Shown piece by piece: positions 1 through 32,237 of a stretch of 64,000 bases of DNA. The stretch lies in the NCBI GenBank assembly GCA_964388455.1, contig CAYMAN010000009.1:9711-73710 (forward strand), read 5' to 3'. Numbering within the stretch: position 1 is the stretch's first letter; every line of letters begins with the position of its first letter. The stretch comes from an uncultured Eubacteriales bacterium. Lineage in GTDB: Bacteria; Actinomycetota; Coriobacteriia; Anaerosomatales; JAAXUF01. The position numbers and the translations under genes were made by a program. The notes below the pieces were generated by a model. The model was not told where the DNA came from, searched no databases, and saw only the letters and a list, made by a program, of their open reading frames with translations.

Positions 1-120
1 CTTAGTGAGGTCCGGGTAGCTGCCCGACGCATCCCGCAGGTCACACGTATGCGGACATGGGGTATGCACTGGGAGATGATCGCACTGCGAGAGGCAATGC
101 GACTGAGACTAGGGGGCGCA

Positions 121-1848
121 ATGACAACGTGCAGTTTTCGCAAGCCAACGCTGATTCTGATGGGGTTGCTGGTGGGACTGATGCTTGGCGGCTGCACCAC
201 AGAGGTCACGGTGACGAATCCCACAACCGCGGCGAACTCGAAGGCGTGCGGAGACGAGGGCTGCCACGCCCCGGTGGTCTCGAAGCAGGCTGCCGGGCCT
301 CATGAGGCGGCAGCCTGTACGATCTGTCATCCGGGAACCGGCGCAGCGCATGCCAAGGCTCCGAAGGTCGCCGTCGCAACCACTGACTGGCGCGTTGAAT
401 CATGCCGTGACTGTCACGCAGAGGAAGTGGACACCTACCTGTACGACGACAACGCGCAGGCAGGTCCGTTTGGCGGATCGACGCGCATTCCTCCTCAGCC
501 GAAGGTCGCGACGTTCCCTGAGTACAACACCATCGTTGCAGGCAGCGCGTTCGCCAAGGACTACAACGAAGAAGGCGCTCACTCGGTCATGCTTGAGGAT
601 CACTTCGCCACGACTCGCGGCAAGTTCGACACGTGCGTCCAGTGCAAGTCGACCAAGGTGGCCAAGGCGTTCCAGACGGGCTACCCCCTGACGGTCGCAT
701 CGGACACGACGATCACGCTGACGCACACGGCATCCGGAACGGTGCCGGCGAAGCAGGTCTTCATCCCTAAGGGGACCAGACTCACGTACGCAACCGATCC
801 CAAAACGCGCCGCGTTGACTCCAAGGCGGTATTCCCCGACAAGACGACGTACACGTCCAAGCCTTCTGCCAGTGAGGACGCGACCAAGAACTACAACATG
901 ATGTGGGCCGCGACGATCGCCGCGATCAAAGAGACGATGCCGTACGGTGCGAGCTGCAGTCACTGCCATGATCCGCACACCGGGAAGTTCGCCTACGTTC
1001 GTCAGGCGATGATCGAATCCATCGAGGGCACGGGCGGTGTCTCGGGCAAAGGCGGCGTGAATCCCTATGTTGCGGGCTCCGCGAAGAAGATCTCGGAGGC
1101 ATCACTGAAGGATCAGCGCGTCTTGCTCTGTGCGCAATGCCACGTCGAGTACACCTGCGGGAAATCAGGTGTTGACGGCATAGAGCGTGATGCCTACGGC
1201 TGGGCCAAAGCCAAGGACCTCCATAAGGTCTACACGCAGCAGTTCGACTACACCCAGGATTGGACGCAGAAGATCATCGGGCAGCCGCTCATCAAGAGTC
1301 AGCACCCGGAGACCGAACTGTACTGGGAAAGCACGCACTACAACGCCGGCGCGTCGTGCGGCGACTGCCACATGCCAGAGGTGCGCAGCGCACGCGGACG
1401 GGTGTTCCGGAGCCACTGGTTCACGAGCCCCTACAAGTATCAGGACGCGAAGTATTTCACGCCCTTCGCCGAGAAGACGGGCCTGAACCCCGCGTTCAAT
1501 CGCAAACCATGCGCCACCTGCCACGAGGACCGCGAGGCCCAAGGAATCGCCCAGCAGCAGGCGTTCTACAGGCGTCAAGGTGAGATCGAGAAGTTGCTCT
1601 CGGCCTCCGTTGCCCAGCTCGCTAAAGTCGCGGCCGTCAAGCAGGGCGGCGGAAAGCTCGATGCCGCAGCATATGAAAAGGCCGTCGAATCGCATCGGAA
1701 GGCACACGTGATCTGGGAGAACCTCGCTGTCTCAGAGAACTCGATGGGGTTCCACAACTTCGACGAGGTCATGAGCTCGATGGACACTGCCGAGAAGGAC
1801 GTGCGCAGCGCCATCTCGCAGGCGAAGATCGCACGCGGCTCGAAATAG
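121..1848 (+). CDS. Octahaem NrfA/ONR-type cytochrome c nitrite-reductase-like lipoprotein
   Basis: Track ORF 49..1848. I prefer the ATG at 121 (AGGGGG 4 nt upstream), which gives a signal peptide ending in the lipobox LGGC. Haem motifs in order: CGDEGCH (CX4CH, 247-267), CTICH, CRDCH, CVQCK (634-648; the Lys-type active-site motif of NrfA/ONR), CSHCH, LLCAQCHVEY, CGDCHMP, CATCH. Confidence 0.85.
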   Translation: MTTCSFRKPTLILMGLLVGLMLGGCTTEVTVTNPTTAANSKACGDEGCHAPVVSKQAAGPHEAAACTICHPGTGAAHAKAPKVAVATTDWRVESCRDCHAEEVDTYLYDDNAQAGPFGGSTRIPPQPKVATFPEYNTIVAGSAFAKDYNEEGAHSVMLEDHFATTRGKFDTCVQCKSTKVAKAFQTGYPLTVASDTTITLTHTASGTVPAKQVFIPKGTRLTYATDPKTRRVDSKAVFPDKTTYTSKPSASEDATKNYNMMWAATIAAIKETMPYGASCSHCHDPHTGKFAYVRQAMIESIEGTGGVSGKGGVNPYVAGSAKKISEASLKDQRVLLCAQCHVEYTCGKSGVDGIERDAYGWAKAKDLHKVYTQQFDYTQDWTQKIIGQPLIKSQHPETELYWESTHYNAGASCGDCHMPEVRSARGRVFRSHWFTSPYKYQDAKYFTPFAEKTGLNPAFNRKPCATCHEDREAQGIAQQQAFYRRQGEIEKLLSASVAQLAKVAAVKQGGGKLDAAAYEKAVESHRKAHVIWENLAVSENSMGFHNFDEVMSSMDTAEKDVRSAISQAKIARGSK

Positions 1849-17190: not shown

Positions 17191-17241
17191 ACTCCCCGCC
17201 CGCGGCCACCACCTTCGCAGGCGCATCGTGTGCCCTTGCGC

Positions 17242-18315
17242 CTAGTCGTCCTCGGGCTGCCTCACGTGACAGCGCACGCAGAACGCGGGCTGATGACACT
17301 CGAAACAGCCGGCTGCGCCGCGCGCCTCGACCTCGAGGAAGTGCTGTTTGGCCCACGTGCCCTTGGTGGGGTCGTAGCTCACGTGGTGGCACATGCTGCA
17401 CAAGTCCGGCTTCTGCTTGTGGCACCTAGCGCACATCGCGCGGTTGGCCTCGGCGTTGATACCGTGCCCTGTCTTGCCCTGCCCCCAGCCCTCGGGGTGC
17501 GGCATCTCGAGGCCGTGACAGTCGGTGCAGAAGGCTTTGGTGTGGCACATGACGCACTGCTTGGGATCGGCCTTGGCAACCACCGCATGTCCGCGGTTCC
17601 ACTTCGCGGTCTTGTGTGACGTCGGCTTGAGCGCGTACCCGACCGGATGGCACACACTGCACTGCGCCGAGGCCGTGGGATACTTGGTCGTGCCGTGGCA
17701 GGTGAAGCACTGCGACATCAGCGACAATGGCGTGCCCCGATCAGGCAGCGGATGCGCAGTGCGGACGTGGCACGACACGCAAGATTTGTTGCGTTTCGCG
17801 TGCTCGGCGTGGTCGATGAGAATGCGGAAACCGGAGGTGGCCTTGCGGTTCACGTCGTGGCACTGCAGACAGATCTCGTCGGCCATAGGCTCCGTGCCGG
17901 GCAGGCGACCGTCGACCGGGTCAGGGTAGCCGCCGCGCACGTGCGCTACGACGTCGCGTGCCAGAAGTGCGGTCTGACTCACGACCGATTGCGGCACTTC
18001 GTACCACCGATGCGGGGCCGTGTGGCATCTCACGCAGCTCACCGCGGCGTGCGCCGACCGCTCCCAGGTCGCATGGCGCGGCTGCATCTCATGACAGCTC
18101 GCGCACAGGATCGGCGACGCGGTCACGACGTCCCACATGCCGAGCAGCACGATGATGCCGAACACGATCGCGACGATTCGCAGCACCCGTGGCCTCGCCG
18201 AGGACGCCGTGGCAGCTGTCGCCGGGGATTCGCCCACGCTTGACTCGGCGGTCAGCTCGGCTGCGCCCGCCTCCTCTGCTGGTCCCTGATCGCTCATGCC
18301 GGAAGTGTGCTCCAC
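17242..18315 (-). CDS. Membrane-anchored dodecahaem cytochrome c with an N-terminal NapC/NirT/NrfH-type tetrahaem domain
   Basis: GTG 18315 lies 5 nt after GAAGGA. One N-terminal TM helix, then 12 CXXCH motifs. The first four follow the NapC/NirT pattern (LCASCHEM..W..S.H....CVRCH ... CLQCH ... H.EH....CVSCH..TAH). Confidence 0.9.
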   Translation of the reverse strand: MEHTSGMSDQGPAEEAGAAELTAESSVGESPATAATASSARPRVLRIVAIVFGIIVLLGMWDVVTASPILCASCHEMQPRHATWERSAHAAVSCVRCHTAPHRWYEVPQSVVSQTALLARDVVAHVRGGYPDPVDGRLPGTEPMADEICLQCHDVNRKATSGFRILIDHAEHAKRNKSCVSCHVRTAHPLPDRGTPLSLMSQCFTCHGTTKYPTASAQCSVCHPVGYALKPTSHKTAKWNRGHAVVAKADPKQCVMCHTKAFCTDCHGLEMPHPEGWGQGKTGHGINAEANRAMCARCHKQKPDLCSMCHHVSYDPTKGTWAKQHFLEVEARGAAGCFECHQPAFCVRCHVRQPEDD

Positions 18316-18316
18316 G

Positions 18317-19189
18317 CTAGTCCTTCACGAGTTCGAGCGTCGGGTTGAAGTTGTCCCTGGGCACCTCGCCGTGACACTTCTTGCAGAATGCGCCCGTGTG
18401 GCACGCCTCGCAACTGCGGTGCTTCTTGACCTGTTCGCCGTGTGTCTCGCGCCACTTGGCGGTGTGCGAGCGCGGACGCATCTCGTGGCAGGTGGTGCAC
18501 CATGCCTCGTTCCACTTGTGGCACCTGGTGCAGTCGCCTCCCTCGGCCTTCTCGGCGTGGACGATCGTCCAGCTGGCGGCCTTGTGCGTCGCGGGTGCGG
18601 CTTTGTCGGTATGGCAGGTGGGGCACCCGTTCTTGGCAGTCTTGCCGTCGTGGCAAGTCAGGCAGCCGGTCATGGGCGGCGTGTTCTTGCCCTCGGGACT
18701 TTTGTCGTGGACCAGGTAGTTGTGGCACTCGATGCAGTCGAGCTTGAGGATCGAGACATGCGCGCGGTGCGGGATCAGGAGGTCACCCTTGGGCGAGACG
18801 GTGCGCAGATCCAGGTGACAGCGCTCGCATGCGGCATTGGTCGGCTTGGGGAACGTTGCCGGTTCCCAGTCCGGCATTGCCAGCGACAGGTAGAACTCGC
18901 CGAGCATTCGCACCGCGTAGCCAGACTGCGGGAGGACCCGCGGTGGCACGTGGCACTGCTGGCAGGTCGTTTTCGCGTGGACCGACTTTTCCCATGCCTG
19001 GTACTTGGGGTTCATGCGTTCGAACCGCTGCAGGAACGCCGGCCGAGTCCCGATGTAGGCCGGCACGATCACCAGAACGAAGATGCCGAAAGCCACCAGG
19101 CCCCACAACAGCAATCGTTTGCGCTTCTCGGCGGGCGTGGTCGGCTGCTCGGTGTCCATGATCTCCGGACTCTCGTTGGTCTCGGGCAT
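18317..19189 (-). CDS. Membrane-anchored nonahaem cytochrome c (paralogue)
   Basis: ATG 19189 overlaps the upstream stop (TGATG). One TM helix and 9 CXXCH motifs. Confidence 0.9.
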   Translation of the reverse strand: MPETNESPEIMDTEQPTTPAEKRKRLLLWGLVAFGIFVLVIVPAYIGTRPAFLQRFERMNPKYQAWEKSVHAKTTCQQCHVPPRVLPQSGYAVRMLGEFYLSLAMPDWEPATFPKPTNAACERCHLDLRTVSPKGDLLIPHRAHVSILKLDCIECHNYLVHDKSPEGKNTPPMTGCLTCHDGKTAKNGCPTCHTDKAAPATHKAASWTIVHAEKAEGGDCTRCHKWNEAWCTTCHEMRPRSHTAKWRETHGEQVKKHRSCEACHTGAFCKKCHGEVPRDNFNPTLELVKD

Positions 19190-20058
19190 CAGTGGCACTT
19201 CCCGCAGAACTTCTTCTCGTCGTGGCAGACGAGGCAGCCCTTGCCGCCCGTCGTCGCACGCTCGGCGTGGCCCGTCTTCCAATTACCGACGTGCGTCGCG
19301 GGACGCCGTTTGTGGCAGTCGGCGCAATAGTCAGGCGTCCAGTTGTGGCACTTGCCGCAGTCCATCGTCTCCGACATCGTGCCGTGCACCTTGAGCCAGT
19401 CCTTGCGCTCGTGCGTCTCGGGCGTCTCCTTGCGGGTGTGACAGTCGGTGCACTTGTTCGATGCCTTCTTGCCGTCGTGGCAGGTCTCGAGACACATCTC
19501 CATCTCGGGACGGTTGAATCCCCGGTTGTTCACCGTGTGCACCAGATCCTTGTGACACACCGTGCAGTTCATTCCGAGGACCTCGACGTGCGCCCGGTGC
19601 GGAATCAGCAGGTCGCCGTTGGGCGAGACCTGGCGGTAGTCGGTATGACACTTCTGACAGGCTTCATGCGTGGGCGGCTCGAGCAGGTTGGTCTCGTTCG
19701 CACCCTGCGCGAGCTGCGAGTAGAACGCCGGGATCGACCTGGCCGAGAAGGACGCAAACCCCTTCACGCCCGGCTCGACGTGACAGCTCACACAGCTCAT
19801 ACGGCCGTGCGTGGACGTGCGCCACGCCTCCATCCGCTCATGCATGCCCGGGTAGCGTGCGTAGTATCCCGGCTGCAGCGTGGAGAACACCGGCAGCACC
19901 AGCAGGAAGACGACCAGCGCGAGCAGCGCGCCGATGACGATGCGGCGCGTTGGGCGCAGCTTCTTGGGCGCGGGGGCGTCGGCGTGGGGCGCTTGGGCCG
20001 CCGGCGTCTCCGCGACCTTGTCGTCCGACGGGCTCAGGGTGTCGTCGCGCTCGTCCAC
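19189..20058 (-). CDS. Membrane-anchored cytochrome c, 8 CXXCH + 1 CX3CH (paralogue)
   Basis: GTG 20058 directly abuts the upstream TAG stop. One TM helix. CLETCH lies at 19477-19494. Confidence 0.9.
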   Translation of the reverse strand: MDERDDTLSPSDDKVAETPAAQAPHADAPAPKKLRPTRRIVIGALLALVVFLLVLPVFSTLQPGYYARYPGMHERMEAWRTSTHGRMSCVSCHVEPGVKGFASFSARSIPAFYSQLAQGANETNLLEPPTHEACQKCHTDYRQVSPNGDLLIPHRAHVEVLGMNCTVCHKDLVHTVNNRGFNRPEMEMCLETCHDGKKASNKCTDCHTRKETPETHERKDWLKVHGTMSETMDCGKCHNWTPDYCADCHKRRPATHVGNWKTGHAERATTGGKGCLVCHDEKKFCGKCH

Positions 20059-21072
20059 CTAGCGCATCTCCTTGAACTGCTTGTGGCAATCCTCGCAGTA
20101 CTGCTTCTTGTGGCACTCGAGGCAGCGTGCCTCGTTCTCGCCCAACTTCGAGTGGCCGCCGATCCAGGTGTCGGTAGAGCCGTGGAAGTCCGGTCGCGTG
20201 GTGTGGCATTCCTGGCACTGCGCATCGGACACGTGGCAGAGCAGGCACTTGGGCCGATCCTTGAGCGCCTCGGCGCCGTGCTGCTTCATCCAGGTCTTCT
20301 TGGTGTGCAGCACCTCGATAGCCTTCAGGCTGGTCTGCATCGGCCGGGCGGTGAACACCGGCGTCTTGCCGGTGGTGTGACACATGGTGCACTGCGCAGC
20401 GGTATGGCAGGTCTCGATGCAGCCGTTCGCACCGACGCGCTGAACCACTGCGGGGTGATCGACCTTCCACTGCACAGCGGTCTCGCCCAGTGCGTGGTGG
20501 CAGGTGAAGCAGTCCGTGCTCTTCTTGGTGCCGACGTGGCAGCCGTACGACACGCACACGCCGGAAAACGGCATCTTCTTATGCTTCACCATCACGGTGG
20601 GCTGGTGCGCGGTCCACTTGTGACAGGTCACGCAGTCGCGCGTCTCGCTTGCAACGCGCATGTGCGCGGGGTGCGGGATGCGGCTGGTGCGCTTGATGTC
20701 GTCGCTCCGGTCCGTGATGTGACACGAGCGGCACGCATCGCGCGTCGGCCGATCGAACTTCAGGAACCTCGTGGGCGCGTTGCGGCTGAGCAGCCCGGCG
20801 TAGAACTCCGCCGAGACGGCCAGCTGGTAGCGGACCTGACCGCGCGCGGGGACGTGGCAGCTCGCGCACGGGATGTCCTGGTGCGTTGATGCGGCAAGTG
20901 TCGTCGAGCTTTTCGCCAGCGAGTGGAACCGGGAGAAGAACGCCGGTTGCGTCGCCGCGATCATCGGCAGGATGGCCAGCACGACCACGGCCACCAGGAT
21001 GCCGACGGCGATCCACTTCACGGTGAGCGGGTTGATCCCCCAGCGCGACTTCTTGGTCTCGTTCGGGCTCAT
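20059..21072 (-). CDS. Membrane-anchored cytochrome c, 9 CXXCH + CX4CH + CX3CH (paralogue)
   Basis: ATG 21072 lies 7 nt after the nrfD-like stop. One TM helix. CVSYGCH (20536-20556) and CIETCH (20404-20421). Confidence 0.9.
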   Translation of the reverse strand: MSPNETKKSRWGINPLTVKWIAVGILVAVVVLAILPMIAATQPAFFSRFHSLAKSSTTLAASTHQDIPCASCHVPARGQVRYQLAVSAEFYAGLLSRNAPTRFLKFDRPTRDACRSCHITDRSDDIKRTSRIPHPAHMRVASETRDCVTCHKWTAHQPTVMVKHKKMPFSGVCVSYGCHVGTKKSTDCFTCHHALGETAVQWKVDHPAVVQRVGANGCIETCHTAAQCTMCHTTGKTPVFTARPMQTSLKAIEVLHTKKTWMKQHGAEALKDRPKCLLCHVSDAQCQECHTTRPDFHGSTDTWIGGHSKLGENEARCLECHKKQYCEDCHKQFKEMR

Positions 21073-21079
21073 CGGCTGG

Positions 21080-22414
21080 TCACCCGACCTTGGCGGTGTC
21101 AGCGGCGAACTCGGGGGTCAACGCGGGTCCGCGGTGCGGCGTCGGCTCGGCGGCGGGCTCGAGCGCGGGCTCCGGCGGGTCGTAGGGCGACGGGCCGTGA
21201 TGCGCATGCTCGGCGAGCTCCTCCTCGGGCACGTGCAGCGGGAGGATCTTGGTGGCGGCCGTCATGATCAGCAGGCCGAACGATAGGATGAAGATCGCGA
21301 TGCCGACCTCGGTCAGGCTCGGCATATACGGCGGCGTGAACTGGCCGAGGGGGTTGACCGCGAAGCCCATCGCCATGAGCGAGTAGCGCTTGAGGAAGAT
21401 CGCGAGCACGTACATCGCCGCCGCGGTCAGCTGAACCGCCGGCAGATGTCGCGTGCTCTTGCGGGACAGCAGGATGAACGCGGTGATCCCGAGGATGAGC
21501 ACAGGGACAAAGGCGAACGCGTAGTCGCCGGTCAGGAACTCGGCGAAGCGGATGGTGTGGCCCGGCTTGGCCGAGGTCGGCCAGAAGATGGTGAGGATCT
21601 CAACGACCAGCAGGAAGAGGTCGATGATGATGACCGTCGCGAGCAGCGTCGAGAGGCTCCGGAACATGCTCGGCTTGAACTTGGTGACCTTCAGCTTCTG
21701 CATGATGTAGGCCGAGATCATCAGGAGTGCTATGCCCGACGCTGTGGCCGAGGTCAGGAAGATCGGGACCATGACGGCCGAGTTCCACAGCTCGCGCGAC
21801 TTGTTCATCGAGAGCACGAACGCCGTCGTGGTGTGGAGATAGACCGCGAACGGGAGCGCGATGAGCGTCATGCGGGTCGCGAGTTTCTCGCCGCCCTTGC
21901 CGGTGATGAGAATCCACAGGTCGACGAAGCAGATGATCATGTAGATGTTGGCCGCACTACCGGTGTAGACGAACGGCGAGGTCACGTTGGGCGTGAGCAG
22001 CATGTAGACCGCGCGCCACGGGCGCTCCATGTCCGTGATGATGCCCATGAGCGCCATCATGACCAGCACGCCGGCCTGCAGGACAGCGATACGGGAGAGC
22101 GGCCGGAACTGCTCGGCGCCAAAGAGGTGGACGCTGGCGTAGACCACGAGCCCGCCCGCCGAGAGCCCCACGTAGTACATATAGTTAGTGAACCAGAGGC
22201 CCCACGGGTAGTTGTCGCGCATCGCCATGACGGCGCCGCCTTCGGTCATCGCCGCGCCCCATGACATGAGGCCGAGGATGAGGCCGCAGCCGAGCAGCGA
22301 GACGAAGGCCCAGTAGCGCGGGCTCGCGTTCAGTACGGCGCCGACGTTCCAGTCGATGCCGATGAAGCGCTTGATGCCGGGTCGAGGTGTGGACACGAGA
22401 CTCACGCCCATCAC
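21080..22414 (-). CDS. NrfD/PsrC-family polytopic membrane (quinol-interacting) subunit
   Basis: A 444-aa protein with many TM helices and an NrfD-like N-terminus (YWAFVSLLG..., NYPWGLWFTNYMYYVGLSAGG). Start overlaps the upstream stop (ATGA). Confidence 0.9.
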   Translation of the reverse strand: MMGVSLVSTPRPGIKRFIGIDWNVGAVLNASPRYWAFVSLLGCGLILGLMSWGAAMTEGGAVMAMRDNYPWGLWFTNYMYYVGLSAGGLVVYASVHLFGAEQFRPLSRIAVLQAGVLVMMALMGIITDMERPWRAVYMLLTPNVTSPFVYTGSAANIYMIICFVDLWILITGKGGEKLATRMTLIALPFAVYLHTTTAFVLSMNKSRELWNSAVMVPIFLTSATASGIALLMISAYIMQKLKVTKFKPSMFRSLSTLLATVIIIDLFLLVVEILTIFWPTSAKPGHTIRFAEFLTGDYAFAFVPVLILGITAFILLSRKSTRHLPAVQLTAAAMYVLAIFLKRYSLMAMGFAVNPLGQFTPPYMPSLTEVGIAIFILSFGLLIMTAATKILPLHVPEEELAEHAHHGPSPYDPPEPALEPAAEPTPHRGPALTPEFAADTAKVG

Positions 22415-23367
22415 CCCACATACCAGATCATAGGTTCATTGCCGTACTCTTCCTTGAGCCGCATGACGCGGCGGGTCTTCAGCAGAATCGAGACCTCGCT
22501 CTCGGGGTCGTTCAGGTCCCCGAACTTGCGAGCGCCGACCGGACACGCCTCGGTGCAGGCGGTGGTGCCGCCGTTGCGCGTGCGCTGGACGCAGAAGGTG
22601 CACTTCTCCACGACGCCGGCCTTCTCATGGAGAGGGACCTTGGGGTTGATCTCGGCCTTAGGGACCTCGGGCTCGACCCAGTTGAAGTGCCGCGCGGCGT
22701 AGGGGCAGGTGACCATGCAGTTGCGGCACGCGATGCACTTGTCGTAGTCGATGACCACGATGCCGTCCGGGTCCTTCCAGGTCGCGATGACCGGGCACCC
22801 GTAGACGCACGTGGGCTTGGCGCACTGCATGCACTGGACGGGCAGGTACCACTTCTCGGGGTCGCCACCCTCTTTGTACTCGGCGTTGGAGTGCTCGAGG
22901 TCGAAGCCGCCCACGTCCATCTCGAGCACCTGGATGTAGGTGAAGCCGGAATTGCGGCCGATGTTGTTCTCCTTGACGCACGCGTAGACGCACTTGCGAC
23001 AGCCGATGCAGGCCTTCACGTCGATGACCATCGCCCAGTTCTGATCGCCGGGCTCATCGGCGTAGCTGACCGTGTGGCCGGGGTAGTTGACGGGGTGGTT
23101 CTCCTCGATGATGTGGTCGATCGCCTCGTTGCCGGTGGACTCACGCGCGGATTCCTCGGCGATGGCGACCTGCGGGAGGGCCGAGACCACCGCGGGGATG
23201 ACGCCCGCTGCCACGACGCCGGCGCCGATGCCGAGACTCTCGAGGAAGCGTCGGCGCGAGACCGTGTGGCCGGGCTCGCAGGCTCCCGGCTGACACGCAC
23301 CCGGTTCAGGAGCGCCGGGTACGGTTGCACCGGGCTGCTGCGCCCCGGGCACGATGGGCTTGCTCAT
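22411..23367 (-). CDS. Tat-exported 4x[4Fe-4S] ferredoxin-type subunit (NrfC/PsrB/HybA/ActB-like)
   Basis: ATG 23367 overlaps the upstream stop (ATGA). Twin-arginine motif SRRRFLESLG. Four Cys clusters: CIGCRKCVYAC, CMQCAKPTCVYGCP, CIACRNCMVTCP, CTFC...CTEACP. Confidence 0.9.
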   Translation of the reverse strand: MSKPIVPGAQQPGATVPGAPEPGACQPGACEPGHTVSRRRFLESLGIGAGVVAAGVIPAVVSALPQVAIAEESARESTGNEAIDHIIEENHPVNYPGHTVSYADEPGDQNWAMVIDVKACIGCRKCVYACVKENNIGRNSGFTYIQVLEMDVGGFDLEHSNAEYKEGGDPEKWYLPVQCMQCAKPTCVYGCPVIATWKDPDGIVVIDYDKCIACRNCMVTCPYAARHFNWVEPEVPKAEINPKVPLHEKAGVVEKCTFCVQRTRNGGTTACTEACPVGARKFGDLNDPESEVSILLKTRRVMRLKEEYGNEPMIWYVG

Positions 23368-24116
23368 GTGCGTGCCCTTCCTAGTATCAGCCAGCCGATG
23401 AGACCGGCGGCGATGACGATGAGGACCGAGGCTCCGAGGGTGAGCCACAACGGCGTGTGCACCGGCGGCGCGACGGGCGGAGATGCGAGCGGCGTGAACA
23501 CAGCGCGTTCCGAGACCGCGCGCACCTGGAAACCGGTGCCGACAAACGGAAGCAGCGGACCGGCGTAGATCCACTGCGGGCTGTGCGGGTCGTGACACCC
23601 TGCGGCGGTGCACTTGGCGAGCCGCTTGCCGTGGGTGCCGGCCAGCCACTCCTTGTACTTGGGCGAGTGGCACTTCTCGCAGACCCTGGCGACGTCGCCC
23701 TTGATGTCGACGGTGGTGCCGTCCATGGTCTTGAGCTTGCCGGGGTTCTTGGCGGCGTCGTCGTGGCAGACGAGACACGCCTCGCCTTCCGCGGCCAGTC
23801 GATCGTGACCGACGAGCTTGACCTGATGCCCCTTGAAGTCGTTGGGCAGCTTCTTGGTCGGCTTTCCGCCCGCGCCCATGACCACCGGATGGCAGTCCGT
23901 GCACGGGTAGAAGAACAGATCGCCCGAGGCGGCCTGCCCGGCAAACGCCGCGGGCGCGGTCGCCAGAACAACCGATGCGACCAAAACGAGAAGTAGGGAA
24001 ACAACTACGAAAGCCCCGCGTGACCAGGGGCGGCTCCGGGCCGTGAGTCCCGGATCTGTGAACGAATGCTGCACGTCTATGGTATTGACACCACCTTGGT
24101 CGCGAGTTGTTCCCAC
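23364..24116 (-). CDS. Tetrahaem cytochrome c3-like protein with signal peptide and C-terminal TM anchor
   Basis: GTG start. Signal peptide ending AFA-GQ. Haem motifs CTDCH, CLVCH, CEKCH and CTAAGCH (CX4CH, 23592-23612). The C-terminal hydrophobic helix is LWLTLGASVLIVIAAGLIGWLIL. Confidence 0.85.
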   Translation of the reverse strand: MGTTRDQGGVNTIDVQHSFTDPGLTARSRPWSRGAFVVVSLLLVLVASVVLATAPAAFAGQAASGDLFFYPCTDCHPVVMGAGGKPTKKLPNDFKGHQVKLVGHDRLAAEGEACLVCHDDAAKNPGKLKTMDGTTVDIKGDVARVCEKCHSPKYKEWLAGTHGKRLAKCTAAGCHDPHSPQWIYAGPLLPFVGTGFQVRAVSERAVFTPLASPPVAPPVHTPLWLTLGASVLIVIAAGLIGWLILGRART

Positions 24117-24175
24117 ACGATCAAGGACGAGACTAGCACCGCCCCTGACCTCCCCTATTCGCGAGTGATTACCGT

Positions 24176-24193
24176 ATTGTTAGCATTGTGTTA
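24176..24193. promoter_or_regulatory. Candidate response-regulator/promoter element (direct repeat in an AT-rich patch)
   Basis: ATTGTTA-gc-ATTGTGTTA lies inside the only AT-rich stretch of the 24117-24260 divergent intergenic region. This is a tentative call. Confidence 0.25.
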
Positions 24194-24260
24194 ATGCCCA
24201 TTCCGACGTCGTCGGCTATGGTCAGGCATGAAAAGTGCCGCGGTTTCCAAAGGAGCGCAC

Positions 24261-24944
24261 GTGACCAAACGCGTTCTGGTCGTCGATGACGAGGAATCGA
24301 TCCTCAAGGTGGTCTCCTACGCCCTGTCGCAAGCGGGCTATGAGGTCCACACCGCCGCCGACGGCACCGGCGCCGAGTTCATGTTCTCCGAGGTCAAACC
24401 GGATCTCGTCATCCTCGACGTCATGCTGCCCGGCAAGTCCGGACTCGACGTCGCACGCGACCTGCGGACGCACTCCAATACCCCCATCATCATGCTCTCC
24501 GCGCGCGGGGACGAGGTCGACCGCATCCTCGGCCTCGAGTTTGGCGCCGATGACTACGTCACCAAGCCGTTCTCGCCTCGCGAGCTCGTCAGTCGCGTCA
24601 AAGCGATCCTGCGTCGCGTCGACACCGTCCCGGACGCTGCCGCGTGCCTCCAGGTGGGCGACCTCGAGATCGACACGCTCGCTCGGCAGGTGAAGTTGTC
24701 GGGGCAGGCGATGCACCTGACCAGCTCCGAGTACGGCATCCTGCTGTATCTCGCCCGGCACCCCGGCACCGCGTACTCGCGCCAGGCGATCCTCTCGGCG
24801 TTGTGGGAGGAGTCACCGGTGGGCGACGAGCGCGCGGTCGACGTACACATTCACAACATCCGCGAGAAGATCGAGGAAGATCCCAAGAACCCGACGTATC
24901 TGCTCACGGTCCGTGGCTACGGGTACCGGCTGAGAGAGTCGTAG
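24261..24944 (+). CDS. OmpR/PhoB-family response regulator
   Basis: GTG 24261 follows AAAGGAG. Receiver domain (VLVVDDE, DLVILDVMLPG) plus a winged-helix output domain (LLTVRGYGYRL). Confidence 0.9.
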   Translation: MTKRVLVVDDEESILKVVSYALSQAGYEVHTAADGTGAEFMFSEVKPDLVILDVMLPGKSGLDVARDLRTHSNTPIIMLSARGDEVDRILGLEFGADDYVTKPFSPRELVSRVKAILRRVDTVPDAAACLQVGDLEIDTLARQVKLSGQAMHLTSSEYGILLYLARHPGTAYSRQAILSALWEESPVGDERAVDVHIHNIREKIEEDPKNPTYLLTVRGYGYRLRES

Positions 24945-24951
24945 GCCCGCC

Positions 24952-26736
24952 ATGCCGAGGAAGCCGTGGCGCGCGTCGATCCGCCTGTGGCAGACTTCGC
25001 TGTTCGTCGCCGTCATCATGGTCGCGATCCTGATTCTGTCCGGATCGCTCTCGGCGGGGCTCAAGACCACGTTGACTCAGATGTCTGAGGCAAACGAGCT
25101 GCGCAACGCATCCGCGCTCGCGCGCCGGCTCGAGGCCGAGTTCCCGCTTACCGCAGCGAGCATCGAGCGCGTGCGCCAGGACCTGCTTGAGTATCGCGAC
25201 ATATATGGGTCGAGCATCTGGGTCTACAACGCGTCGGGCCGACTCATCGACTCGGCCAATGACAGCGGGCCGGGTCAGGAGGCGCTCGACGCCGCCCGCG
25301 CGGCCGTGAAAGCCGGCGACACCGCCTATGCGACCGTCGACCTGCGCGCGGGTGGGTGGGTCGTCGCCGCCAAGCCGATCATCGCCGCCGACGGCAAGAC
25401 TGAAGGCACCGTGGTGACCGCCGGCTCCGTGGCCGATTCGCTCGCAATCCTCGCCGCGGTCCGCTTCCGGCTGTGGATCACCTTCTGGGTATCCCTGCTG
25501 GTGGCCGGGTCGCTCGGCTACTGGTTCTCGTCGCTGATGGGCAAGCGCATCCGCGAGATGTCGGAGGCCGCCATCGCGATCGCCGACGGCGACTTCGAGC
25601 AGCGCCTCCCGACCGGGTACGTGCCGGATGAGATCTACGACCTCGCCGACTCCTACAACCGCATGGCCGTGAGCCTGGGCGAGGCGTTCGGCGCGGTGCA
25701 GGAGAGCCAGCAACGACTGTCAGCCGTGGTCGCGTCGATGGCCGAGGGGCTCGTGTCGTTTGACTCCAAGGGCGTCGTGCGCGTCATCAACCAGGAGGCC
25801 GCTCTGCTGCTAGGGCTGGGCAATCCCGGCGACGGAATCGACCGTGAACTCGTAGGCACACCCGCCGAGGAGTTGGCCCCCGATGCAGAGGTGCTCGATA
25901 TCATCCGCACGGGACTCGTCGGCGACAGCGTCGCCAAGACCGTGGGCCTGGGCGGCTACACCGTGCTGCTGCACTGCACGCCACTGATCGGTACCACCGG
26001 CAACCTGCGTGGCGCCGTGCTCCTGCTCGCCGACGTGACCGAACAGCAGCGCATCGAAGACGCGCAGCGCCGCTTCATCGCCGACGCGAGCCACGAGATG
26101 CGCACGCCGCTCGCAGCACTCAAGGGCATCCTCGAGCTGCTCATCGACGGCGCCGCCGAGGATCCTGCCGTCCGAGACGACTTCCTCTCGACGATGCAGT
26201 TCGAGGCCGACCGTTTGGGCCGCCTCGTCACCGACCTGCTCACACTCGCACAACTCGAGGCCGGTAGCCTGCAGCTCAAGGTCACCTCGGAGTCCGCAGC
26301 CGACCTGCTCGGCAGCGTCGCCAGCGTCATGAACACCCTGGCCGAGCGCGCCGGAGTCACACTCGCGGTCGACCTCCCCGACGGCGACGTCCGCGTGATG
26401 GCCGACCGCGATCGCGCCGTACAGGTCCTGCTCAGCTTCACCGACAACGCCCTCAAGCACTCCCCCCGAGGCTCGACCGTACGCCTGCGTGCCGTTCGCC
26501 GAGACGAGCGCGTCCTCTTGGCCGTAGCCGACGAGGGCTCCGGCATCAACGCCGAGGAGCTCACGCGCGTCTTCGAGCGTTTCTACCGGGCCGATGCTGC
26601 ACGCGCCGGCGGTGGCGGCGCGGGCCTGGGCCTCGCGATCGCCAAGGAGATCGTGGAAGCGCACGGCTCCAGCATCGAAGTGCACTCCGAGCCGGGCACG
26701 GGAACCACGTTCGGCTTCGAGCTGCCGATCGCGTAG
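24952..26736 (+). CDS. Sensor histidine kinase (two TM helices with an extracytoplasmic loop, then HAMP, PAS-like, HisKA, HATPase_c)
   Basis: H-box ADASHEMRTPL and the G-boxes GAGLGLAIAKE / GTGTTF. TM helices at about aa 12-35 and 160-185. Confidence 0.9.
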   Translation: MPRKPWRASIRLWQTSLFVAVIMVAILILSGSLSAGLKTTLTQMSEANELRNASALARRLEAEFPLTAASIERVRQDLLEYRDIYGSSIWVYNASGRLIDSANDSGPGQEALDAARAAVKAGDTAYATVDLRAGGWVVAAKPIIAADGKTEGTVVTAGSVADSLAILAAVRFRLWITFWVSLLVAGSLGYWFSSLMGKRIREMSEAAIAIADGDFEQRLPTGYVPDEIYDLADSYNRMAVSLGEAFGAVQESQQRLSAVVASMAEGLVSFDSKGVVRVINQEAALLLGLGNPGDGIDRELVGTPAEELAPDAEVLDIIRTGLVGDSVAKTVGLGGYTVLLHCTPLIGTTGNLRGAVLLLADVTEQQRIEDAQRRFIADASHEMRTPLAALKGILELLIDGAAEDPAVRDDFLSTMQFEADRLGRLVTDLLTLAQLEAGSLQLKVTSESAADLLGSVASVMNTLAERAGVTLAVDLPDGDVRVMADRDRAVQVLLSFTDNALKHSPRGSTVRLRAVRRDERVLLAVADEGSGINAEELTRVFERFYRADAARAGGGGAGLGLAIAKEIVEAHGSSIEVHSEPGTGTTFGFELPIA

Positions 26737-26906
26737 CACGCCGGGCACACGAGCGCCCTGTTGCAGTCCGCGATGCTCACGAAACCCTAACAAGACAGAA
26801 ACCGAGCGCGAACCTACGCCGCTTGGAACGGGGTCATATTCTCTGTAGCAACTTGAGACGGAATTCGCGTGTCCACCGGGCGGCGAATCGTTGGAGGGAA
26901 AAGGTC

Positions 26907-27470
26907 ATGGCAGTCTTCTTCGCAGGAATCCTCATCGTAGTCGGGCTCGTGAGCGCAGTCGCCGTCGCGGTCGCGGTCCCGCTCCTCTTCGGCCTTATGG
27001 CATTCGATGTGGCCGAGTCCCGCAAGAATGCGGTCGTCTCCCCCAAAGACGCACCGCTCCGTATCGCGGTCGAACGTGGCGTCGCTCGCGCTTTCGTCAT
27101 CGCCGGCGGTGCGTTCTGGTCAGTCGCGATGTTCATGGGCCTCACTTCCGGCGGCTCTTCCGGCGCCGTGATGCTGGGTGCGTTCGTACCGCTGGTCGCC
27201 GTGGCAGCCACGCTGATCATCGGCTGGTACTACGAGCGCGCCGCTGCGGTGCTGCTGGTCGCAGCTTCGTTCGCAGTGCTCGCATGGGGCGTCGTCTACC
27301 AGTTCGAGGCTGGCGTGTGGCTGATCATGACGTTCGCACTCCTCGGCCCGATGCTCACCGCAGCCGTGCTGTTCTGGATGGCCCGCACCGAGCAGGAGCA
27401 GTTCGAGTTCGCGATGGCCGCCAGCCCGCAGCTCGCCCCGATCTTCTCGGCAAGGAGCACGATCAGCTAA
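26907..27470 (+). CDS. Hypothetical integral membrane protein
   Basis: ATG 26907 follows GGAGGG. Multiple (about 5-6) hydrophobic helices. No recognised motif. Confidence 0.55.
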   Translation: MAVFFAGILIVVGLVSAVAVAVAVPLLFGLMAFDVAESRKNAVVSPKDAPLRIAVERGVARAFVIAGGAFWSVAMFMGLTSGGSSGAVMLGAFVPLVAVAATLIIGWYYERAAAVLLVAASFAVLAWGVVYQFEAGVWLIMTFALLGPMLTAAVLFWMARTEQEQFEFAMAASPQLAPIFSARSTIS

Positions 27471-27496
27471 TCCTCAACACACCGTAGTCCCCGCCT

Positions 27497-27526
27497 CGAA
27501 GGGCCGGCAGAGATGCCGGCCCTTCG
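27497..27526 (+). terminator. Stem-loop terminator candidate
   Basis: CGAAGGGCCGGC-agagat-GCCGGCCCTTCG: a perfect 12-bp stem 27 nt after the stop codon, with no T-tract. Confidence 0.55.
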
Positions 27527-27748
27527 TGTCGCGCGTCATGGCATCTCGCCACGGATGCCGGGCGTCGTGGCGGACATCCATCGGAGATCCAACCCCGCAT
27601 CACCGAGACTTCGTGGGCGAGAGTGGGTATAGGTGACGTTGCGGAACGCCCCTCTTCCGCGCAAACACTCGACACCAATCATTCAATGGGCGCTTCCGCA
27701 TGTTCGAGTGCGGCCTCAAACGGGGGCCGACGAACTGAGGGAGGAAGC

Positions 27749-28309
27749 ATGAAACCATTCGGTGCGGTATTCGCGGTCTTGCTGGCAACAGCTCTGATCA
27801 TCCCTGCGGTGGCGATCGCAGTCGAACCCATTGTCCTTGCTCCGCCCGCAAGCGGAGTGCTCACGGTTCCCGCTGGTGCCCCACTCGTCGTACCCGCAGG
27901 ATGGGTCGCAGGAAGTCGTGGCCTGGCGATGAGGGGACCGCAGGTCACTCAGTTCTTCCTCATAATCACCAAGCATGCCGAGGCGGGAGAAGAACCGCTG
28001 ATGCTCGAGGTGACCGCTGCGGACTCGTCAAAGTACTGGCTTCCCGGGGTGACGCCTGCGACATCCGAGCTCGTCGGTTTCGACCTGATGCCGTTCAATT
28101 CCATGATCGGGGCCAAGCCATACTCGAAGGAGTGGGCGTATCCGATTCCGGAGGGACTCCCAGCGGGCGAGTACACCTTTGAGTCCGGCTTCGTACAGAC
28201 ACGCCAGGCCATCGATCTATTGTGGTACTTCGACGGACAGCGCTCACCGCTCATATTTCCGGCCTCGCCTGCGCAGGACTTCCCTGCGTGGGACTTCCAC
28301 GTGAACTGA
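27749..28309 (+). CDS. Hypothetical secreted protein
   Basis: ATG 27749 follows GGAGGA. Signal peptide MKPFGAVFAVLLATALIIPAVAIA. No recognised domain. Confidence 0.55.
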   Translation: MKPFGAVFAVLLATALIIPAVAIAVEPIVLAPPASGVLTVPAGAPLVVPAGWVAGSRGLAMRGPQVTQFFLIITKHAEAGEEPLMLEVTAADSSKYWLPGVTPATSELVGFDLMPFNSMIGAKPYSKEWAYPIPEGLPAGEYTFESGFVQTRQAIDLLWYFDGQRSPLIFPASPAQDFPAWDFHVN

Positions 28310-28441
28310 GTCGGACCCCTACCCGAGCACACTCTCACGAGCGCGAGCCCTCCGCGCAGGCGACTGTCGGAGGGCTCCTTCACGCCACCCGGACTTACCG
28401 TGTCAGACCCCTGAGCTATGCTCTGTTCAGGAGGTGCAGAC

Positions 28442-29930: not shown

Positions 29931-30503
29931 TCAGCTGGTCCCCCGCGCCACAACTTCCCCCCACGTCCGCCCCTGCGCAATCGATTGCACCGTCGACGCG
30001 GAGACCCCATACTCCGCGGCCACCTTCCGCGCACTCTGCCCGGCTGCAAGCCGTTGCTTCATCTCCGCGACCTTCTTGGCGGTGAGCTTCTTGCCTCGCT
30101 GCTCCAGCGCGGCCAGTCTCGTCGGCAGCTTCGGGTCGAGCTCGGCCCAGGCTTTGCCGCTCTTGATCGCGCTGACCATGCTCGGGCTGATCGCGAACTC
30201 CTCGGCGATCGAATTGCCTGAGCGGCCTCCCTCGAGGGCTGCCATCACACGGCGTGCGGCGTCGGCGTTGAGGGCTGCTCCGGACGGCTCGACGGCTCGC
30301 ATCCGGGCTCGCAGCTCGTCGTCTATCGCGTCGGCCCAGCGCTTGCCGCTCTTGATCGCGCCGACTGTCTCGACGGAGACGCCGTAGCGCTCGGCGATCA
30401 CGGTGTGGCGTTCGGCGGCGGCGATGTCCTCGGCGATGGCGCGGGCCTTCTCGGCGGTGAGCTTGGCTCGCTTCTCGGCGGGATCGAGGCGGTCTGTTGG
30501 CAC
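29931..30503 (-). CDS. DNA-binding protein with three tandem HTH modules
   Basis: GTG 30503 lies 6 nt after GAGGAG. Three repeats: IAERYGVSVETVGAIKSGKRWA, IAEEFAISPSMVSAIKSGKAWA and VAAEYGVSASTVQSIAQGRTWG. Confidence 0.65.
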   Translation of the reverse strand: MPTDRLDPAEKRAKLTAEKARAIAEDIAAAERHTVIAERYGVSVETVGAIKSGKRWADAIDDELRARMRAVEPSGAALNADAARRVMAALEGGRSGNSIAEEFAISPSMVSAIKSGKAWAELDPKLPTRLAALEQRGKKLTAKKVAEMKQRLAAGQSARKVAAEYGVSASTVQSIAQGRTWGEVVARGTS

Positions 30504-30650
30504 GAGTATCTCCTCGCTGACGTCGCTGTGGCGTGAGGCACCACGCTCATAATCTCTGCTCACAAACCATACCGCGAACGGTCGAGAGCTGGCTCGGTAG
30601 TTGCGCTTAAGGGGTCGTCGGGACGGACCTCTCGGCGGAATGGCGGCGTC

Positions 30651-32237
30651 ATGAACCACAGAACTCGGAGAACCGCGTGCGCACGCAGCTGTCTGGTGGC
30701 GTTCTCGCTGCTGACCGGTCTACTGATTGCCGCATCTGCGATCCCCTCGGGGGCGTTCGCCGCACCATCGCCGCATGTGAGCGCCACCGCCAACACCACG
30801 AGTTGCAGCGCGTGTCATCGCGTACACAATGCTCCCGCGGACTCGATGTTTTTGGGTGCCGCTGACGCTTCCGGTTCGATCACGGCCTCGTGTCTGTCCT
30901 GCCACAACGGCAGCGATAGCGATGCCTCCAACATTGTCGACGGGTCCTCTGACTCCTTCGGCCAGCCCAGCGGACACACCCTCAGCGCCAATAGCGCGGG
31001 CACAGCGGATATCGATGGCTGCGCCACGTGTCACGATGCCCACGGCTCATCGTCCGAGACGCGCCGGATACCTGCGAAAGAGATCAACGGCGTCGCGATC
31101 TCATCGGCGGGTAACCAGTCGTGCCTCGCATGTCACGCGACGAACGCAGACTGGTTTGGGCCCGGCTATCCCGAGGCAGACGCCCCCACGCGCGACGCGG
31201 CCGGCTACCCGGTTGCCGGAACGTGGCCGGGCAAGGCCTCCTACGAGTCGACCTCCAACGCGCATCGGCTGATCCCGGAGTCGACGCGGACCGTCGGCGT
31301 CAGCGAACCGATTCGTCGCCAGCAGGGCGACTGCACCTACTGTCACGGCGCGCACGGTGGCGCGAACGACTACGACGGCCTCAAGGCCACCTACACCGTG
31401 CCGACACAGGCGACACTCGCCTCAGACACCGCCGACGGCTCGTACGCGGCGCTGTGCTTCACATGTCACGGTGGCGATAGGCCGGCTGGATTCGCCACCA
31501 CACCGGTCGACATCAAGAGCTTCGCCACGGCGGGCGGCGCCGGTGGTCACTCGGTCGTCACCTCCGGCGGCACGCTGCCGGTCGGCTCTCCGCTGCCGTG
31601 CTTCGAATGCCACAACCCACACGGCTCCACACGCCAGAACAGCTCGCTGCTCTCCGACGAGCGCGGCGCGTCACTCGCAACCACCAACGCCGCGGACGTC
31701 CGTGCGTTCTGCTTCACATGCCACACCACGAGCGACAGCGCATCGGGCTGGAACAGCGTCACGAGCACCTACACCGCAGTCCCCGCAGCCGAGGAAGTCG
31801 TCGGCCTCTCCCGCCAGGCCGGCGTGCTTCGCCTCCCGGCAGTCGCCGCCCATGAGCAGGCCGCGGCGGACTCGTGCTACACCTGCCACGGCAACAGCTA
31901 CGCGGCGGGCGGCTCCAACGTGCACAATCCCGGCGAGGCAACCGTCGCGAACTTTGGCAGCAACCTAGCCTCGACCACCGACGGCGCGATGGTTCCGTCG
32001 GCCACAGCCGATGCGACCGCCACCGTCGATACCAGCGCGTCAGTCGACGCGACGGTCAGCATCCCGACATCGCCGACAGTGCCGGCAACCGACACGCTTG
32101 TGCCGAGCTGGTCGGATCTGGGGACGCCGTTCCTGGAGAGCACGCCGACACCGCTGTCGGGGTCGCTGCTCGAGTCGCTGACATCATCGATGCCGTCGTC
32201 GGACTCTGCGACGGGCTCCTCGACACCGTTGCCGTAG
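30651..32237 (+). CDS. Secreted nonahaem cytochrome c (doubled-CXXCH type) with a Ser/Thr/Pro/Ala-rich C-terminal tail
   Basis: Signal peptide ending AFA-AP. Nine CXXCH motifs, several of the form CxxCHxxHG (CATCHDAHGS, CTYCHGAHGG, CFECHNPHGS). The last ~110 aa are low-complexity S/T/P/A/D. No TM helix or LPXTG motif is seen. Confidence 0.85.
   Translation: MNHRTRRTACARSCLVAFSLLTGLLIAASAIPSGAFAAPSPHVSATANTTSCSACHRVHNAPADSMFLGAADASGSITASCLSCHNGSDSDASNIVDGSSDSFGQPSGHTLSANSAGTADIDGCATCHDAHGSSSETRRIPAKEINGVAISSAGNQSCLACHATNADWFGPGYPEADAPTRDAAGYPVAGTWPGKASYESTSNAHRLIPESTRTVGVSEPIRRQQGDCTYCHGAHGGANDYDGLKATYTVPTQATLASDTADGSYAALCFTCHGGDRPAGFATTPVDIKSFATAGGAGGHSVVTSGGTLPVGSPLPCFECHNPHGSTRQNSSLLSDERGASLATTNAADVRAFCFTCHTTSDSASGWNSVTSTYTAVPAAEEVVGLSRQAGVLRLPAVAAHEQAAADSCYTCHGNSYAAGGSNVHNPGEATVANFGSNLASTTDGAMVPSATADATATVDTSASVDATVSIPTSPTVPATDTLVPSWSDLGTPFLESTPTPLSGSLLESLTSSMPSSDSATGSSTPLP

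Follow-up and report, generated by a model that had tools for sequence, protein, structure and literature searches.

Electron transfer across a thick Gram-positive wall is, to our knowledge, known in outline for two Firmicutes genera only, and the question of how it might be achieved elsewhere is raised by a gene at 30651-32237 in a 64,000-nucleotide stretch of the metagenomic contig CAYMAN010000009.1 (hereafter, the window). The gene encodes a c-type cytochrome with nine haem-binding motifs and a tail rich in Ser, Thr, Pro and Ala. A reading made from the letters of the window alone (the sequence-only reading) had proposed it as a candidate terminal, wall-associated element of an electron conduit. 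Our analysis favours, with moderate confidence, a Sec-exported, unanchored nine-haem relay for extracellular electron transfer in the Gram-positive wall zone, and a wall-associated or terminal position within that zone is plausible. The Gram-positive-type host that had been assumed agrees with the environmental Coriobacteriia lineage of the contig, the cultured relatives of which have Gram-positive walls (PMC9686372). It has already been published that this lineage carries many multihaem cytochromes, 'presumably involved in Fe(III) reduction' (PMC9686372). The protein is therefore of an expected kind, while its family appears to be previously undescribed; what is new is the delineation of its nine-haem module without a solved structural neighbour, the concatenation of this module into giants of 60-75 haems and the minimal free form encoded here.

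The nine-haem module and its relatives

The open reading frame (ORF) has 528 codons on the forward strand with an ATG start, and its GC3 (G+C fraction at third codon positions) of 0.81 overall and 0.80-0.86 across the tail resembles that of the neighbouring genes. Word-indexed searches returned 89 homologues for the single sequence and, when a profile was used, 173, all of them unnamed or labelled 'cytochrome c3 family', and the nearest align at 71-84% identity over 95-98% of the long-form length. The protein itself was also met with in sequencing run SRR13723396. In the public annotation (P0001, 463 aa) the gene begins only at Met66 (nt 30846), so that the signal peptide and the first haem motif are missing. 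The homologue coverage and a conserved A-x-A/SPH junction near the N-terminus support the long form from ATG 30651 over P0001, and coordinates of its parts are presented in Table 1.

All nine CXXCH motifs counted in the sequence-only reading are present, at residues 52, 81, 124, 158, 228, 269, 317, 354 and 409, each invariant or at least 90% conserved, against a chance expectation of 0.0018 per 528 aa from the window's own amino-acid composition. They hold 18 of the 18 cysteines of the mature protein. Eight of them form the pairs 52/81, 124/158, 228/269 and 317/354, in each of which the leading motif has the form CxxCHxxH; the variant CxxCHxxHG, which had been described as frequent, accounts for three of these four and CxxCHxxHN for the other. 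The core contains exactly 19 histidines, every one at least 92% conserved among 107 sequences, with nine inside the motifs and ten outside (42, 59, 109, 131, 205, 235, 300, 324, 401 and 425), whereas its sole methionine is 6% conserved in the same sequences. No CXXCK or other open-site motif was found in the core. Because of the ten extra conserved histidines and the lack of a conserved methionine, all nine haems are probably bis-His sites serving electron transfer rather than catalysis. The conserved histidines outside the motifs outnumber the haems by one, and the bis-His count does not account for the role of this tenth residue.

The suspected kinship with doubled-CXXCH proteins is upheld by the profile search that had been suggested for it: Paired_CXXCH_1 (PF09699) scores 78.3 bits against a cut-off of 20.6 (E=3.3e-22, four stretches) and TIGR01905 scores 47.4 bits against 25.2 (three stretches). 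Scores for two decahaem families fall far below their cut-offs, namely 38.3 versus 192.2 bits (E=1e-9) for the DmsE/MtrA family TIGR03508, from which the protein also departs in having nine haems, and 39 versus 325 bits for the GSU2203 family NF041028. The model of MtrC/MtrF domains II/IV (PF22113) reaches 55.1 bits over a cut-off of 30, a sum over five short stretches of which the best covers profile positions 84-176, and entries for MtrC, MtrF or OmcA do not occur among the PDB matches of the family profile or of Foldseek.

A full-length AlphaFold model built from a 55-sequence alignment has a mean pLDDT (predicted local distance difference test) of 57.9, and Foldseek found nothing for it in the PDB. 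The core modelled alone with 107 sequences reaches a pLDDT of 88.4 and a predicted TM-score (template modelling score) of 0.87, and its single PDB match by Foldseek, 6r2q_A, is insignificant (E=0.025, TM 0.19/0.27). The same entry is the best match of the family profile among PDB sequences (E=7e-5 over four stretches), followed by 7tfs_A (E=0.004) and by NrfA entries (E 0.05-0.09), while a search with the single sequence gave nothing meaningful. OcwA, OmcS and OmcZ are absent among the matches of the profile and single-sequence searches, OmcS and OmcZ at E<=10. We take 6r2q_A to be MtrA, chain A of the Mtr complex, and 7tfs to be the OmcE filament; OcwA is presumably PDB 6I5B, and OmcE and OmcS 7TFS and 6EF8. 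The MtrA chain forms a wire of ten haems in linear arrangement. As modelled, the core fold thus seems to have no solved close relative, and its remote kin would be haem wires only.

These comparisons also bear on the idea that the protein is a catalytic multihaem enzyme that would reduce nitrite, sulfite, tetrathionate or hydroxylamine in the way of the proteins related to OcwA in fold. The weak profile matches to NrfA entries would fit such an enzyme, but an open-site motif is missing, the histidines are enough for nine bis-His haems and OcwA is not among the PDB matches. Furthermore, the NrfA-type model PF02335 has no match in cytochrome 30651-32237, unlike in the NrfA-family gene of the same window. 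We regard a reductase as extremely improbable.

When 1.84 billion cluster representatives were searched exhaustively with the profile, 239 matched at E<=1e-30, a few of them through its tail/OmpL47 part only. The family was followed in 68 loci (one genome per species), nearly all from metagenome-assembled genomes labelled Coriobacteriia, Actinomycetes, Actinomycetota or Anaerosomatales and including Coriobacteriaceae EMTCatB1 of a thermophilic biocathode. A hidden Markov model of residues 36-432 matches near-full length (>300 of ~395 model positions) in 113 proteins and does so twice in 8. By these matches, the core appears to be a discrete nine-haem module of ~395 aa, found almost only in environmental Coriobacteriia.

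Related loci also contain giant ORFs in which copies of the module stand in tandem ~680 residues apart: L024 6113-21181 encodes at least 5022 aa with 75 CXXCH and five copies and runs off the locus, L060 9236-21187 encodes 3983 aa with 74 CXXCH and L037 6002-17536 encodes 3844 aa with 45 CXXCH. The best profile match, P0132 (MCL4079188.1/WP_267192627.1) of Parvivirga hydrogeniphila, is 4629 aa long and has 61 CXXCH in four modules preceded by a 1500-aa immunoglobulin (Ig)-like N-terminal region. Its first module is 46% identical to the window core over 390 aa (E=3e-102) and the other three are 31-33% identical. Such Anaerosomatales giants are true homologues with the same haem motifs and ligand histidines, in contrast to which the window protein has one module and a low-complexity tail. 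It thus appears to be a stand-alone single copy of the unit that its relatives chain into long haem arrays, and this chaining is hard to explain except by long-range electron transfer.

The tandem, head-to-tail use of the module raises the possibility that copies of the free protein assemble into a homopolymeric cytochrome filament, as in OmcS and OmcE or as proposed for CwcA, which would be stacked end to end, span the wall and extend past it as the non-covalent counterpart of the giants. The weak match to 7tfs_A and the one conserved histidine beyond the haem count are compatible with it, as are the pilus-like appendages that Parvivirga forms on ferrihydrite only (PMC9686372) and the polymerisation proposed for CwcA in the Thermincola wall (PMC7911101). 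However, the OmcE match is driven by generic haem-motif segments and OmcS and OmcZ are unmatched. Moreover, the histidine of the SPH motif is modelled confidently inside the monomer (pLDDT ~80) and is equally conserved in relatives where it lies behind an fn3 domain, so that it is not a ligand left at a free end for the next subunit. A filament of this kind is therefore quite unlikely in our view. Unlikely, too, is a wider proposal in which the ~395-aa segment would be a wire unit deployed both covalently (4-5 copies, 60-75 haems) and as free subunits stacking into a trans-wall or extracellular filament, with the tail decorating its surface, where it would serve solubility, a glycan coat or contact with minerals. 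If the filament reading were true, the protein would belong to a new family of cytochrome nanowires, one specific to Gram-positive bacteria and with its own fold.

Export, accessory domains and the C-terminal tail

The N-terminus, read by eye, consists of MNHRTRRTACARS as a basic n-region, an 18-aa hydrophobic stretch and PSGAFA/AP. The A-x-A site is conserved in 17 aligned homologues, where it stands immediately ahead of an invariant (S/T)PH, and the signal segment is modelled as a lone helix (residues 3-29) in the full-length AlphaFold model. The anatomy of the Sec signal peptide that had been claimed, with its AFA-AP junction, is therefore confirmed. Sec export is the expected route for a c-type cytochrome; export by the twin-arginine (Tat) route was considered and rejected, since the arginine pair is not conserved in the homologue alignment.

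An uncleaved signal would instead anchor the cytochrome in the membrane, like those encoded at 17-24 kb of the window. The length of the hydrophobic region, the modelled helix and an assignment made by eye leave room for such an anchor, but a family-conserved Pro/Gly break and A-x-A follow that region, the anchored cytochromes of the operon have no such A-x-A site and some relatives place the signal peptide and an fn3 domain ahead of the same core. A signal anchor is thus very unlikely.

The absence of a transmembrane helix, lipobox and LPXTG motif, stated in the sequence-only reading, is borne out by our scan. In the 528-aa cytochrome we found neither a second hydrophobic segment, at the C-terminus or elsewhere, nor an LPXTG-type pattern, as a sortase substrate would have. 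A lipobox is ruled out because no cysteine follows the hydrophobic region; the only N-terminal cysteines, C10 and C14, precede it, and the c-region reads PSGAFA/AP. NCBIfam sorting-signal models had no match in the last 60 aa, no sortase gene occurs in the 64-kb window, and SLH, LysM or LPXTG domains occur in 0 of 173 homologues in precomputed Pfam lists.

The relatives fall into classes by what accompanies the core. Class A, which includes the window protein and its nearest kin, has a low-complexity tail ending in Pro, mostly as -LP. In class B a similar tail is followed by 'LPxxPxE(T)', ~12 weakly hydrophobic, Gly-rich residues and RRRR, an ending reminiscent of a tail anchor or of a sorting signal not yet described. 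Matches of the class B tails to the PEP-CTERM/MYXO-CTERM models of NCBIfam are sub-threshold (E ~0.3). The class B ending did not occur outside the family in 2,244 ORFs scanned (1.2 Mb of related loci), and being confined to family members it does not show a shared sorting system. Class C carries, after a low-complexity linker, an OmpL47-type beta-barrel domain (NF047446, 1e-14 to 1e-28) and ends in a conserved short 'AARLGRWI..GT'-like motif. In class D an N-terminal fn3 domain separates the signal peptide from the invariant SPH, and a Big domain is also attached to the core in relatives. Judged from these domain assignments, the fn3, OmpL47-type and Big accessories support an extracytoplasmic, exposed location for the family.

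The tail of 98 aa consists of 20% S, 18% T, 11% P and 11% A, carries nine D/E and no K/R/H, and has a pLDDT of 30-40 in the full-length model. Its S+T content of 39% is unmatched in 13,253 windows of 98 aa from 47 other proteins of the window (maximum 27.6%). The length of ~110 aa given earlier is right if counting begins at the last haem motif (115 aa). Identity of the tail to the relatives drops from 0.76 to 0.10, whereas that of the core drops from 0.87 to 0.66. No tandem DNA repeat was found in the tail, and it has no match to the hematite-binding-type pattern [ST]-hydrophobic-[ST]-P-[ST], just two S/T-P-S/T triplets being present. Such tails had been read as wall-spanning spacers, an idea that does not hold here: the far end is anchored by nothing, and because it ends free the tail cannot be a tether or spacer between an anchor and the haem domain. 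It is rather a fast-evolving, disordered appendage that may aid solubility, be O-glycosylated or make weak contacts with wall polymers or mineral surfaces. The composition fits the O-glycosylated Ser/Thr/Pro linkers of actinobacterial secreted proteins. A gene for the protein O-mannosyltransferase Pmt was not found in the 64-kb window; a PMT_2-family gene lies ~9 kb upstream of the orthologue in L070, which is a lead only. Fast as it evolves, the tail ends in Pro in every close relative, usually as -(A/P)LP (window 32220-32237; P0002-P0007, P0009, P0011, P0048).

A proposed relay in the wall zone and its probable partners

Combining these features, we propose that the signal peptide would be removed after Sec export and the haems attached, giving a soluble product of ~490 aa with nine covalent, bis-His, low-spin haems. 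It would receive electrons from anchored NapC/NirT-type cytochromes fed by an NrfCD-type quinol module, both encoded at 17-24 kb, and pass them along its haem chain to acceptors in or beyond the wall, such as Fe(III)/Mn(IV) minerals, humics, electrodes or a partner; the flow may also reverse.

The seven-gene operon at 17-24 kb, 6.5 kb from the cytochrome gene, has Pfam matches to NrfD (4e-34), Fer4_11 (1.4e-16) and NapC/NirT (6.7e-13), and the last of its four anchored cytochromes, with 12 CXXCH, is the NapC/NirT-like one. A connection with this operon, for which the sequence-only reading had suggested a co-expression test, is backed by two related loci. In L003, the orthologue (59% identity) lies 149 bp downstream of the same c3-FeS-NrfD-c9-c8-c9-c12 string and on the same strand, with copies of the window's response regulator and histidine kinase (85% and 63% identical) flanking the unit of operon plus orthologue, and in L004 the orthologue is within ~7 kb of the operon. 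More widely, a NapC/NirT-like anchored multihaem gene is found within 10 kb in 16 of 66 loci. The linkage is real but not universal, as set out below.

Precedents for a relay of this kind exist in other monoderm bacteria. In the Thermincola model, electrons pass from the anchored decahaem ImdcA to the soluble decahaem PdcA, the OmcS-like wall hexahaem CwcA and the surface nonahaem OcwA, which has an NrfA/OTR-like fold (PMC7911101, PMC6703420). The window protein shares with this chain a Gram-positive host in which anchored, quinol-oxidising multihaems would hand electrons to exported, wall-bridging ones, and with OcwA the nine haems and the lack of a classical anchor. It has no detectable sequence relation to OcwA or the OmcS-like proteins, and it is of the doubled-CXXCH kind with a long acidic tail. 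OmhA of Carboxydothermus ferrireducens, a terminal reductase, is secreted, unanchored, weakly bound to the surface, shearable and found on the magnetite product (PMC7829351). Together with SmhA-C, it provides a functional precedent for the proposed role, namely secreted unanchored multihaems of a monoderm, although these proteins belong to other families (OmhA being related to OcwA), come from Firmicutes, bear 8-12 haems and have no Ser/Thr-rich tail described (PMC7829351). With the Shewanella MtrA/DmsE decahaems (6R2Q chain A) the likeness is that of a bis-His wire of CXXCH pairs, which is reflected in the profile and Foldseek matches given above, but the haem count, the sub-cut-off score and the low TM values set them apart, and the monoderm Coriobacteriia host has no outer membrane or MtrB-type porin partner. 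The Geobacter nanowires OmcE and OmcS are likewise extracellular bis-His wires, and the CxxCHxxH...CxxCH spacing resembles that of OmcE, but the similarity is marginal and motif-driven and haem count and size differ. On the basis of these comparisons, the cytochrome belongs to the broad doubled-CXXCH family but to none of the MtrA, Thermincola or Carboxydothermus families.

The physiology of the lineage is compatible with such a role. Cultured Anaerosomatales are Gram-positive, Parvivirga hydrogeniphila depends obligately on dissimilatory Fe(III) reduction and an obligate Fe(III)-reducing member of the group has 17 multihaem proteins (PMC9686372). In EMTCatB1, the family member is a 19-haem protein in L039 (scaffold1, ~899-900 kb), which is probably gene 1c0260 as judged from gene order only, that is from the order of aspS (1c0254), hisS (1c0255) and gloB (1c0261); the assignment rests on synteny, not on sequence. 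Published values for 1c0260 are 333 transcripts per million under current, 94 at open circuit and 44 with the inhibitor BrES (PMC7943316 supplement), so that this gene is moderately expressed and 3.6-fold up under current versus open circuit. The cytochromes highlighted in the EMTCatB1 study, 1d0898 and 1c0642, were considered as the family member and rejected, as gene order points to 1c0260 instead.

The relay might also stop short of the surface. The protein could shuttle electrons in soluble form without leaving the inner wall zone, like the periplasmic carrier PdcA, feeding other reductases such as the product of 49-1848 and never exposed on the surface. Consistent with this are the lack of both an anchor and a wall-binding domain, the position of the gene mostly alone without cytochrome neighbours, the NrfA-family multihaem encoded in the same window and the soluble decahaem that forms part of the Thermincola model (PMC7911101). 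Against it, relatives fuse the module to fn3, OmpL47-type and Big surface domains, concatenates of 60-75 haems exceed the length that an inner wall zone needs and no reductase gene recurs beside family members. We consider the inner-wall shuttle rather unlikely. The gene at 49-1848 (+) itself encodes a 599-aa NrfA/cytochrome c552-family multihaem with six CXXCH (PF02335, 2.6e-45), which might act as a nitrite-type reductase or, like OcwA, as a reductase at the surface, and which is a possible alternative electron sink.

Several points weigh against the surface-directed relay that we favour. With neither an anchor nor a wall-binding domain, retention in the wall is left unexplained by the sequence, and cleavage of the signal peptide is a judgement made by eye. 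The structure prediction that had been suggested as a check of a linear haem chain yielded a confident core fold, but the AlphaFold model is haem-free, so the chain is something we infer rather than see. The operon link is not general either: in L070, the closest long contig with an orthologue of 83% identity, the order DUF1611-DUF2779-HTH-cytochrome is kept and the operon is absent within 10 kb, and in L071 and most other loci with a single-module orthologue the gene stands alone, often just behind an OmpR-type regulator. Finally, the support for the cytochrome and its close relatives is computational throughout, and the source is a metagenomic contig.

The protein is of interest beyond this locus. 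The OPB41/Anaerosomatales type of Coriobacteriia has a wide distribution in subsurface and sediment habitats; among its cultured members one lives by Fe(III) reduction alone, and another relative dominates a methane-producing biocathode. The gene is the simplest, single-module form of a seemingly lineage-specific cytochrome family, other members of which are among the largest multihaem proteins seen. Being soluble and of ~50 kDa, its product would offer a practical way into the whole family through expression, spectroscopy and structural studies, work that bears on whether walls are bridged by free relays, by polymers or by giant single-chain wires.

Neighbouring genes and the divergent candidate regulator

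Table 1. Positions of the cytochrome gene, its parts and its neighbours in the window, with the C-termini of two classes of relatives
Feature	Coordinates or identifiers	Strand	Basis
Nonahaem c-type cytochrome precursor gene, 528 aa, stop 32235-32237	30651..32237	+	ORF list, GC3, 89 homologues
Sec-type signal peptide, aa 1-37, predicted cleavage AFA/AP	30651..30761	+	n/h/c anatomy, conserved A-x-A, model helix aa 3-29
Nine-haem core module, aa 38-430: four CxxCHxxH...CxxCH pairs and a ninth haem site	30762..31940	+	Paired_CXXCH_1, hidden Markov model unit, AlphaFold, His conservation
Span of nine CXXCH motifs, 15 nt each: nt 30804, 30891, 31020, 31122, 31332, 31455, 31599, 31710, 31875	30804..31889	+	motif positions
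Acidic Ser/Thr/Pro/Ala-rich disordered C-terminal tail, aa 431-528, ends -TPLP, no anchor	31941..32234	+	composition, pLDDT
Probable partner operon, seven genes: 3-haem cytochrome, Tat 4Fe-4S protein, NrfD-like subunit, four N-terminally anchored cytochromes (9, 8, 9, 12 CXXCH)	17242..24116	-
Response regulator and histidine kinase, likely cytochrome-gene regulators	24228..26736	+	translations; divergent to operon
Three-repeat helix-turn-helix (HTH) DNA-binding protein gene, candidate local regulator	29931..30503	-	HTH_7 2.1e-10, HTH_28 7.7e-9
Divergent intergenic region, 147 bp, presumed promoter region of HTH and cytochrome genes	30504..30650	.	HTH start analysis
Class B C-termini	P0008, P0012, P0016, P0017, P0022, P0026, P0033, P0034, P0053; L038 10868-11524; L051 10014-11531
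Class C C-termini	P0010, P0013-P0015, P0018-P0020, P0032, P0066, P0067, P0074, P0083

Between the response regulator/histidine kinase pair and the cytochrome gene lie two small genes, a DUF2779 nuclease-like gene and the minus-strand helix-turn-helix (HTH) gene. Downstream of the cytochrome are an epimerase and a sugar-type ABC transporter, and further on a PASTA-domain Ser/Thr kinase and housekeeping chaperone genes; ResB or CcsA was not found in the window. The HTH, DUF2779 and epimerase neighbours are conserved in the nearest relative only. Comparison of window 17200-28350 with L070 6173-9157 shows that a block from the 12-haem cytochrome gene to a 228-aa secreted protein is missing from L070 between DUF1611 and DUF2779. 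It corresponds to the seven-gene operon, the response regulator/histidine kinase pair and the two small genes, and the difference could be either an insertion in the window or a deletion in L070.

The distant multi-module members sit between relA and hisS/aspS. This neighbourhood includes an N-terminally anchored NHL-repeat protein (28 loci), CcsA (23), ResB (17) and a Rex-type repressor (16), examples being L040 4222-5238 (and 27 other loci), L019 9894-10721, L027 13015-14343 and L044 15909-16580.

The divergent triple-HTH gene noted in the sequence-only reading is present, with the HTH_7 and HTH_28 matches of Table 1 and three repeats. Two of these follow the pattern ..GVSxxTVxxIxxG(K/R)xW (residues 81-108 and 206-233) and the third, AISPSMVSAIKSGKAW, was recognised by eye; the three share the looser form ..(G/A)(V/I)Sxx(T/M)VxxIxxG(K/R)xW. 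For this gene GTG 30503, with a GAGGAG ribosome-binding site 7 nt upstream, is a likelier start than the first in-frame one at 30659, which would overlap the start codon of the cytochrome. A promoter scan gave no sigma-70 consensus match, so the promoters were not located, and a terminator scan gave a single internal terminator-like site, which is at chance level. The pairing of HTH and cytochrome genes is retained in L070 and not in more distant loci. In L007, L051 and L071, the orthologue is immediately preceded, on the same strand, by a gene for an OmpR-type (Trans_reg_C) regulator, and in the window and L070 the divergent triple-HTH gene occupies its place. From this gene order, the cytochrome family seems to be regularly paired with a local regulator, the kind of which differs from locus to locus.

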